Below, piece after piece: positions 44,053-45,441 of a stretch of 64,000 nucleotides of DNA. Origin of the DNA: Schmidtea polychroa (lineage: Eukaryota); NCBI GenBank assembly GCA_044892525.1, contig CM097885.1:144646001-144710000 (forward strand). Reading direction: 5' to 3'. Under the pieces are notes generated by a model. The model was not told the origin of the DNA. It ran no database searches and worked only from the letters and a program-made list of their open reading frames with translations. The translations under genes were made by a program, and so were the position numbers. Every line of letters starts with the position of its first letter. Positions within the stretch are counted from its first letter, which is position 1.

Positions 44053-45441
44053 ATGGATAAGCGACAAAGAGAAGAGTTCAAAGAAATCGTCAAACAAGTC
44101 AGAAAATCAACAACAATTCGAATACATGACCATGTGAAGTGTGGAATATGCAAAGGATTATTAAAAGAACCTCACCAAACCAGATGCGGATGTAGAATGT
44201 GTAAAGAATGTGTAGAAGAAATAATAAAGAAGGGACCACAATGGTGCCCGGTATGTAAAGAAACCATGATAACAAGTTTGGGAGATACAAACGAGGACAA
44301 AGCGGCAGTGAAAGATATGTTAAATGCAAATTTAGGATGTAAAAACACCCCATGCAATTGGCGAGGAGTGATATGGGAAGTAAGGCAACACATGGAGAAG
44401 TGTGAGTATAAAGTCAGTCACTGCGAACGTTGCCAAGAAGAGATTAAAGCCAGTGAAGAAGCAGAACATCAAAGTCGATGCAAGGAAAGGCTAGAAAAAT
44501 GTGAATATTGCGGAGAAACCGACACCTGGAGAAAACTAACGAGTCAACATCATAACGTACAAGAGGAAAAAGTGTGCGCAGAATTCAGAGGAGAATGTCC
44601 CAACAAATGCGATAAACCCGGAGTAATAAAACTCGCTCAACATCTGAAAGAATGTGAAAGGAAAAAGATAAGGTGTGTGTTAGGAAAATGGGGATGTCAG
44701 AAACAATTACACCGAGGAGAATTACCCCAACATCTAGCAGAGAACGTATCAACACACGCGGAAATGTGGTCAACGGTATTACAAGAAAACGAAAGGAAAA
44801 CCGAACACCTAGAAAAGGAAATAATCTCGCTAAAAACGTTGGTAAAAGAATTATTGCAAGAGAAGGAAGCATTCGAAGAGGCAAGACTAAGCACAAAGAT
44901 ACAAACAGATCTAGTGGAAACTAGCAACAAAATGGTGAAAGAACTACATCAAAAAGTAAGTGAAATGAACCTCAATGAATTGATACCAACGGCTCCATAC
45001 ATATGGAAAATAACGGAAGTAAAGGAGAAGATGCAGAGAGCGAGAAATGGAAAAGATACAACATTACTAAGTCCGGCATTCTACTCATGGAAAAACGGGT
45101 ATAAAATGAAAATGAAAGCATACCCCAATGGGGATGGAAGTGCATACGGAACGCATTTCTCAGTATTCTTCTTGATATGCAAAGGGCTATACGACGAGTT
45201 AATAGAATGGCCATTCAAAGCAAAAATAGACCTCGCAATGATGAACTATCAAAGTATACATGAACAGAGTTTCCATACAGCGGGAAACCTCGTATGTTAC
45301 CAAAGGCCCTTGGAAGAAGAAGGATCAGCAACCGGAGCACCGAATTTCATCCTACAGCGGAAAGTAGAAGACATGACGAGAAACGACACTATATACATAA
45401 AAATAGCGGTGAGGCGAGACGGGAAGAGTAGGACTGAGTAG
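44053..45441 (+). CDS. Intronless full-length TRAF-family protein (RING, TRAF zinc fingers, coiled coil, MATH/TRAF-C)
   Basis: RING CGIC...PHQTRCGCRMCKEC...CPVC; about five Cx2-4C...H..C fingers; TRAF-C signature YIWKI...SPAFYSWKNGYKM...YPNGDG..GTHFSVFF...GLYDELIEWPF...DTIYIK. Confidence 0.95.
   Translation: MDKRQREEFKEIVKQVRKSTTIRIHDHVKCGICKGLLKEPHQTRCGCRMCKECVEEIIKKGPQWCPVCKETMITSLGDTNEDKAAVKDMLNANLGCKNTPCNWRGVIWEVRQHMEKCEYKVSHCERCQEEIKASEEAEHQSRCKERLEKCEYCGETDTWRKLTSQHHNVQEEKVCAEFRGECPNKCDKPGVIKLAQHLKECERKKIRCVLGKWGCQKQLHRGELPQHLAENVSTHAEMWSTVLQENERKTEHLEKEIISLKTLVKELLQEKEAFEEARLSTKIQTDLVETSNKMVKELHQKVSEMNLNELIPTAPYIWKITEVKEKMQRARNGKDTTLLSPAFYSWKNGYKMKMKAYPNGDGSAYGTHFSVFFLICKGLYDELIEWPFKAKIDLAMMNYQSIHEQSFHTAGNLVCYQRPLEEEGSATGAPNFILQRKVEDMTRNDTIYIKIAVRRDGKSRTE

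Follow-up and report, generated by a model that had tools for sequence, protein, structure and literature searches.

A complete TRAF gene under purifying selection inside Burro-type retroelements of Schmidtea polychroa

A complete TRAF gene sits inside a Burro-type gypsy element (22233-52554; 30.3 kb, with LTRs of ~4.0 kb each) in the genome of Schmidtea polychroa. In the reading that we prefer, to which we give a probability of about one half, this purifying-selected gene is a standard accessory gene of such elements and likely acts as a trimeric ubiquitin-ligase adaptor, redirecting stress and death signalling so that cells expressing the element survive. All coordinates refer to the window, the whole stretch of 64,000 nucleotides that was analysed (contig CM097885.1, positions 144,646,001 to 144,710,000, forward strand). 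A preliminary description of the window, made from its sequence, had proposed a TRAF captured from host mRNA long ago and kept by selection.

The presence of TRAF-C in Burro is already known and has been in print since 2007, stand-alone ORF included. According to PMC6431247, MATH_TRAF_C, BIR, ankyrin and Bcl-2-like motifs have been on record since Jurka 2007, the Burro of D. tigrina has a stand-alone MATH ORF as an upstream accessory, and interference of Burro with host apoptosis and ubiquitination is an idea "worthy of experimental confirmation". New here are the complete RING-bearing gene as standard downstream cargo, the measured constraint on it, its membership of a single clade, and the division of the planarian TRAF expansion between host and element. 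A literature survey by title and abstract opening, mostly of journals outside subscription, returned no full-length element TRAF, no account of its selection and no link to the planarian TRAF expansion; a full-length TRAF may be present in the figures or supplements of Grohme 2018 or Jurka 2007.

The element and its accessory genes

That the gene lies in a retroelement was correctly recognized in the preliminary description, since LTRs flank it; the Burro identity, with TRAF-C on record, was missed. The window's element is Burro-type, matched by size, layout and env position as these are described in PMC6431247. It resembles Burro and GYPSM1, giant gypsy LTR retrotransposons known from dugesiid planarians (Jurka 2007; Grohme et al. 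2018, via PMC6431247), in its length of ~30 kb, long LTRs, accessory ORFs and TRAF-C, in a single polyprotein of gag, env, PR, RT, RH, IN and ankyrin where env separates gag from pol, and in its ubiquitin-like and Bcl-2-like segments. Related elements in the same genome form three families, A (the window's own), A' and B, whose TRAFs are 100, 70 and 31% identical to the window's copy.

Features of the window's element:

22229..22232, + strand: target-site duplication GAAT, repeated at 52555-52558
22233..26267, + strand: 5' LTR, TG...CA, 4,035 nt, containing a 252-aa ORF at 24966-25724
26268..26295, + strand: primer-binding-site-like sequence directly after the 5' LTR, presumably tRNA-Pro-like
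26772..27257, + strand: upstream accessory ORF with an IAP-type C3HC4_3 RING (Pfam E 6.5e-8), homologous to the RING of the family-B IAP
29552..43434, + strand: polyprotein, by Pfam gag - ubiquitin-like - weak Bcl-2-like - env (Monjiviricetes fusion) - PR - RT - RH - IN - ankyrin
43604..43963, + strand: 119-aa ORF just 5' of TRAF, with a homologue at the equivalent place in A' and B; omega ~0.07
44044..44052, + strand: TT(A/G)TAG motif abutting the TRAF ATG, a putative splice or trans-splice acceptor
44053..45441, + strand: full-length TRAF, 462 aa, stop-free, with RING, five zinc fingers, coiled coil and TRAF-C
45663..46700, + strand: 345-aa accessory ORF, likely coiled coil, with a homologue in A' and B; no family
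46876..47577, + strand: 233-aa accessory ORF, likely coiled coil; no family above cut-off
47633..48259, + strand: 208-aa accessory ORF, hydrophobic at its N-terminus and again in an internal stretch; no family
48521..52554, + strand: 3' LTR, 4,034 nt

Empty BEL/Pao sites at two loci (L157 and L158) hold a single GAAT, which proves the target-site duplication, and the junction motif was present in two of five other loci. Between the two LTRs there are 13 substitutions and one indel, which marks the insertion as young. All 13 substitutions are transitions, and at 12 the 5' LTR has C or G where the 3' LTR has T or A.

The polyprotein is broken in the window's copy by three in-frame stops and a frame change before the integrase, with the TRAF gene intact; other copies have it as one open frame. 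Env lies in frame between gag and pol, and the order PR-RT-RH-IN was assigned by Pfam. The Bcl-2-like segment scores below the Pfam cut-off (E 0.025), and Bcl-xL was matched at E ~1 over 32 residues only. TRAF is the second of five ORFs downstream of the polyprotein. The upstream IAP-type RING ORF is common to families A, A' and B; when the window was searched by tblastn with the family-B IAP, the RING alone was matched, and no BIR. An atlas search with the 345-aa ORF returned generic low-recognition matches only. The 252-aa ORF in the LTR belongs to no Pfam family and is 72-95% conserved in other A copies and 37% in A', and 116-nt tandem repeats occupy 27832-28306, between the RING ORF and gag.

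Copies of the gene in three families

The preliminary description had treated presence in this copy alone as grounds for abandoning its proposal. We found at least 274 full-length TRAF copies across the three families, a figure drawn from the best-scoring matches only, a sampling that favours intact copies. By family, and as lower bounds, they number 92 in A (86 stop-free), 92 in A' (91 stop-free) and 90 in B (82 stop-free), with those in A 91-100% identical to the window's copy. All 30 of the A loci that were fetched are colinear with the window's flanks, and in A, A' and B alike TRAF lies downstream of both the polyprotein and a small homologous ORF.

To avoid the bias towards intact TRAF, 40 copies were also chosen as the best by RT DNA. 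TRAF is at the expected place in 39 of these 40: it is full length and stop-free in 30, interrupted by a stop in 1, frameshifted in 5 and cut short in 3. The remaining copy (L139) is cleanly without it.

Family B has a 474-aa TRAF and also a second, RING-less TRAF-C within a 4,791-aa polyprotein frame. Because the polyprotein TRAF-C and the 474-aa TRAF share elements, we rejected a division into four families in favor of three. Directly after its TRAF, family B carries an IAP of 392 aa with BIR and C-terminal RING (L063:6227-7402), which is absent at that position in A and A'. The layout of family B, with TRAF-C inside the 4,791-aa frame plus a BIR ORF, resembles that of Burro1 as published. 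The elements depart in two respects from Burro as it is presented in PMC6431247. That review describes a MATH_TRAF_C domain only, either in the polyprotein or (in D. tigrina) in an upstream ORF, whereas the window's family lacks a polyprotein TRAF-C and has a complete TRAF gene downstream of the integrase; family B has both. BIR is among the motifs that the review lists for Burro but is absent in the window's family, which is in this sense a variant lacking BIR.

Domain structure and predicted fold

The claim of a complete RING, zinc-finger, coiled-coil and TRAF-C gene was borne out by the agreement of Pfam, PDB, AlphaFold2 and Foldseek, with the fingers identified from sources other than Pfam. 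An all-Cys RING spans residues 30-68 (PF00097 zf-C3HC4, E 6.3e-5, over those same residues), the zinc fingers 96-235, the coiled coil ~232-310 and TRAF-C 316-455 (PF21355 TRAF-mep_MATH, E 4.8e-25, residues 336-450), both Pfam matches being above cut-off. Pfam zf-TRAF gave no match to the window's protein at E<=0.01 and does match the family-B TRAF, so the finger assignment in the window's TRAF is based on PDB matches and invariant Cys/His. The best PDB matches are TRAF3 and TRAF2; residues 27-157 match a TRAF6 RING-zinc-finger structure (E 1.6e-14), and a TRAF5 RING-finger structure was matched as well. An AlphaFold2 model from a 14-row alignment (mean pLDDT 82.9, pTM 0.36) has the RING, the fingers, a helix at 232-310 and a beta-sandwich at 316-455, and a Foldseek search with it placed TRAF1/2/3 on top (E ~1e-17).

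A homotrimer was predicted from three copies of residues 250-458, with a score of 0.80 against 0.25 for the best control, run agreement of at least 95% and partner pLDDT of at least 82; of 30 solved homo-pairs, 21 attained the mark that it passed, and none of the 23 single chains did. Because TRAF trimers have already been solved, the pass may reflect likeness to them only, rather than binding.

The RING contains the motif CGCRMC, in which the His ligand of C3HC4 is Cys. Together, the eight RING ligands, all Cys, and 19 finger ligands make up 27 tallied zinc-ligand positions, which are invariant in 44 of 44 copies save for one C33Y. The core groove residues Y357, D361, F372, F407, G428 and P430 are kept in TRAF-C. 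The three positions that read Ser-Ser-Ser in fish and oyster TRAFs, which we take to be the binding site for peptides bearing the canonical receptor motif, are LVC in family A and QIA in A'; they are partly degenerate in host triclad TRAFs too. Compared with vertebrate TRAF2, TRAF3 and TRAF5, the element protein shares the fold, the predicted trimer and the Tyr/Asp/Phe/Gly/Pro groove residues, but differs in the His-to-Cys change in C3HC4, in LVC for Ser-Ser-Ser and in an identity of 26-28%.

Purifying selection

Every domain of the TRAF is under purifying selection, which upholds the earlier proposal that the gene was retained by selection. Codon-model omega across copies is 0.140 for 25 distinct A copies and 0.122 for 44 A and A' copies, and twice the log-likelihood gain over omega=1 is 360 (A) and 675 (A and A'). 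Pairwise dN/dS is 0.118 for A (300 pairs from the 25 distinct copies) and 0.150 for A' (171 pairs). The copies behind the dN/dS values were mostly chosen by protein similarity, which lowers dN. By domain within A, the values are 0.15 for the RING (about 0.14-0.15), 0.12 for the fingers, 0.15 for the coiled coil and 0.09 for TRAF-C. Between A and A', dN is 0.18 and synonymous sites are near saturation. In a set of 15 A copies, constraint is tighter on RT (0.02) than on TRAF (0.11), which is close to the ankyrin region (0.09) in this respect. Variants shared among A copies divide 114:44 into synonymous and non-synonymous, and private ones 53:56 with two stops in addition, a pattern that is as expected if selection acts during replication of the element and copies decay after insertion.

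Origin from a triclad host TRAF

We built a careful tree of 26 rows, obtained from 44 rows by removing near-duplicates, two partial proteins and three long branches. In it, the element TRAFs and the protein P0099 form one clade (100/99) inside the triclad clade (98/99), with a weak sister link (88/74) to a group of the host locus L074 and Dendrocoelum TRAF-2/5. In the quick tree of all 44 rows, P0106 and P0107 also join the element clade; scans of metagenome and viral contigs for the genomic context of these three proteins turned up no relative. When the tree is built from TRAF-C alone (55 rows), the polyprotein TRAF-C groups with the element clade (96/81), the host tandem array stands by itself (100/99), and the main host group falls with non-flatworm TRAFs (97/93); deep placement therefore depends on the full-length alignment. 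Element rows also have a different amino-acid composition, and this can exaggerate how firmly they group. A homologous-protein search with the 462-aa TRAF returned no match at E<=1e-10 among 2,634 candidates, and a profile-free search of representatives did find relatives.

From these trees we infer capture from the triclad lineage. The preliminary description had regarded near identity to a host gene as a sign of recent transduction; the closest host TRAF fetched is 32.6% identical, and so neither of the two refuting grounds that it named applies. It had also held that the gene has taken on the base composition of the element, and this is what we observe: fourfold sites are 60% A and 5% T in TRAF, close to pol and env (54-58% A, 9-13% T) and unlike seven host TRAFs (32-44% A, 26-41% T). 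An old capture from the host lineage is thus supported, with placement inside the triclad clade and identity of at most 32.6%. What falls is intronlessness as evidence for an mRNA intermediate, since seven host TRAFs likewise run from RING to MATH in a single open frame, although an mRNA route remains plausible for a retroelement. The His-to-Cys RING is equally real and equally uninformative as a marker of change within the element, a candidate explanation that we rejected: all 9 host rows that have a RING match carry CGC(R/K)xC, as do 3 of 3 Dendrocoelum TRAFs and one crinoid, against CGH in nine other animals.

Set beside the triclad host TRAFs (D. japonica TRAF-2-like A, Smed-TRAF-2A/B and Dendrocoelum TRAF-2/4/5), the element protein has the same domain order, length, CGC(R/K)xC RING and single frame and belongs to one clade with them; it differs in identity (<=33%), in the A-rich codons of the element copy, in the loss of the first groove serine in A and A', and in having no close host sister.

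Expression

By record, no RNA source was listed over 43500-48300; a spliced host gene in the contigs of X1 and X7 shows these two to be RNA runs. This gene, a KDM5/JARID1-type demethylase (JmjC, PHD, C5HC2) at 3500-11900 on the - strand, has many introns of 43-60 nt that are spliced in both runs. Run X1 covers the TRAF ORF, for which DNA carry-over from hundreds of copies is a possible source as well, and X7 has one 179-nt piece over it. Of 30 bins in the accessory region, 30 are covered in X1, 6 in X7 and 18 in X6 (either RNA or DNA), as would be produced by transcription or by high-copy DNA carry-over alike.

TT(A/G)TAG stands directly 5' of the TRAF ATG in 62 of the 62 copies examined, from three families. 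The AT-rich spacers at 43435-43603 and 43964-44052 differ by 4-5% between copies, against ~18% at TRAF synonymous sites. The motif before the ATG and the conservation of the spacers beyond that of synonymous sites together suggest that the TRAF message is a spliced subgenomic RNA. Among the joints listed for the runs, none is at the putative acceptor. As a separate observation, a 42-nt motif is common to 43963 and 47576, and some contigs join the two places, skipping TRAF and two further ORFs.

Proposed function and alternatives

The mechanism that we propose would begin with one old capture of a host triclad TRAF by the element. The gene would be expressed from the spliced subgenomic RNA, and its product would form the predicted homotrimer with presumed E3 activity. 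A retuned peptide groove would change the targets of this ligase adaptor, host stress and cell-death signalling would be redirected, and cells expressing the element would stay alive, the TRAF probably playing its pro-survival part together with the IAP, IAP-type RING and Bcl-2-like modules that the elements also carry. We favor an active trimeric ligase adaptor with retuned targets because the zinc ligands are conserved, the groove triad is altered and a subgenomic message is suggested.

The pro-survival direction is the least certain step. It is based on the IAP modules, the weak Bcl-2-like segment and a host phenotype, namely that knock-down of host Smed-TRAF leads to more cell death (as reported in PMC7586133). 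Family A has no BIR ORF adjoining TRAF, so a partnership between TRAF and IAP is not general. The sole viral TRAF described as tested, ORF111L of the fish iridovirus ISKNV, promotes apoptosis, not survival (PMC3352826). By its description it is likewise a captured TRAF in a mobile or viral genome, but one that resides in a large DNA virus, binds TRADD and acts through caspase-8 (PMC3352826).

The strongest competitor, which we think unlikely but worth keeping in view, also has an active adaptor, here serving the element's own life cycle by removing a host restriction or silencing factor or by aiding particle assembly or traffic. The constraint seen on RING and fingers would suit an E3 role of any kind, the change from Ser-Ser-Ser to LVC in A and QIA in A' suggests non-standard and shifting targets, and Burro1 is silenced by PIWI according to PMC8532177. 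What tells against it is that the co-carried IAP, IAP-type RING and Bcl-2-like modules point to control of cell death.

The preliminary description had offered a decoy as one role for the gene. In favor of a dominant-negative protein that poisons host TRAF trimers, or fills receptor tails without signalling, the six core groove residues are kept and a trimer is predicted, and the RING-less TRAF-C in the family-B polyprotein fits a decoy or a tether. For such a role, however, coiled coil and TRAF-C would suffice, yet the RING and five fingers are equally conserved and are retained across families just 31% identical. A RING constrained no less than the other domains speaks against a pure decoy, and on the conserved RING, the altered peptide groove and the co-carried IAP genes we favor an active ligase adaptor, regarding the decoy as rather improbable.

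We give still less credence to co-option, in which the gene is kept for the benefit of the host and some copies serve as host immune genes. Planarian TRAFs are described as wound-induced through TBK1 (PMC13563047), and there are many intact copies; but constraint is strongest on shared variants (114:44) and weaker on private ones (53:56, 2 stops), copies decay after insertion, and Smed-TRAF-2A/B, as defined by its primer, is a host gene. Carriage as a recent or neutral passenger we dismiss almost entirely, for although the one RT-chosen copy of 40 cleanly without TRAF indicates that loss can occur, the selection tests already refute it (omega 0.12-0.14), as do the divergence of A from A' (dN 0.18, synonymous sites near saturation), the identity of <=33% to host TRAFs and the element-like codon use.

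Returning to the active, survival-promoting adaptor, a bolder version of it can be put forward tentatively, and we would not bet on it: Burro may have captured a complete host TRAF once, before the families split, and employed it ever since as an active ubiquitin ligase in a captured set of cell-death modules (TRAF, IAP, IAP-type RING, Bcl-2-like), as in large DNA viruses. If so, the intact copies, in their hundreds, would form a hidden level of signalling in planarian tissues, gated by PIWI and concerned with innate responses and survival, and retroelement cargo would make up a large part of the annotated "planarian TRAF expansion". With a stand-alone 462-aa gene under purifying selection, the published idea of Burro acting on apoptosis and ubiquitination becomes testable without the 30-kb element.

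Two sources of the planarian TRAF expansion

What this expansion signifies is described as unresolved in PMC8807557. Among the best 150 TRAF-C matches in the genome, ~94 have the match pattern of element copies and ~56 that of host loci, only part of them fetched; judged by these matches, element TRAF copies outnumber the host TRAF loci found. The preliminary description had suggested that retroelement copies could inflate TRAF counts, which holds at the level of the genome, with two reservations: the host tandem array is a separate clade, and the RNAi-essential Smed-TRAF-2A/B is a host gene.

The array of TRAF-like genes lies at ~3-5 Mb and 105-124 Mb of G000 C2 (L037-L060, L080), with RING and TRAF-C in separate frames. 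We considered and rejected its derivation from the element, as 12 array rows together with L078 form their own clade (100/99). We likewise rejected the candidate that the published essential TRAFs are element copies, since the Smed-TRAF-2A/B primer matches the host locus L069, which is 71% identical to D. japonica TRAF-2-like A. The main text of PMC7586133 contains neither "transpos" nor "retro". Published counts of 99-282 MATH transcripts, as far as described, come from collapsed transcriptomes, and the element share in them may be small.

The expansion thus has two sources, the tandem-array clade of the host and the clade carried by the elements, and tree position, codon use and flanks tell host and element TRAFs apart. 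Planarian TRAF counts, RNAi targets and matches in wound or immune expression data should be checked against the element clade.

Other features of the window

No tRNA genes were found within the window. The giant element is inserted into a BEL/Pao element (20956-22232 and 52555-58411; DUF1759, RT, Peptidase_A17, integrase) with terminal repeats of ~700 nt at 20956-21649 and 57719-58411. This BEL/Pao element has a ubiquitin domain ahead of gag (Pfam E 1.1e-21) with LCGG at its end, and a 531-nt stretch with that domain occurs in at least 40 copies of 89-100% identity, some in tandem. At 60060-60582 there is a perfect 259-nt inverted repeat with a 5-nt loop, and the 10 kb upstream of the window contain a stretch that is 68-75% similar to it (L151).
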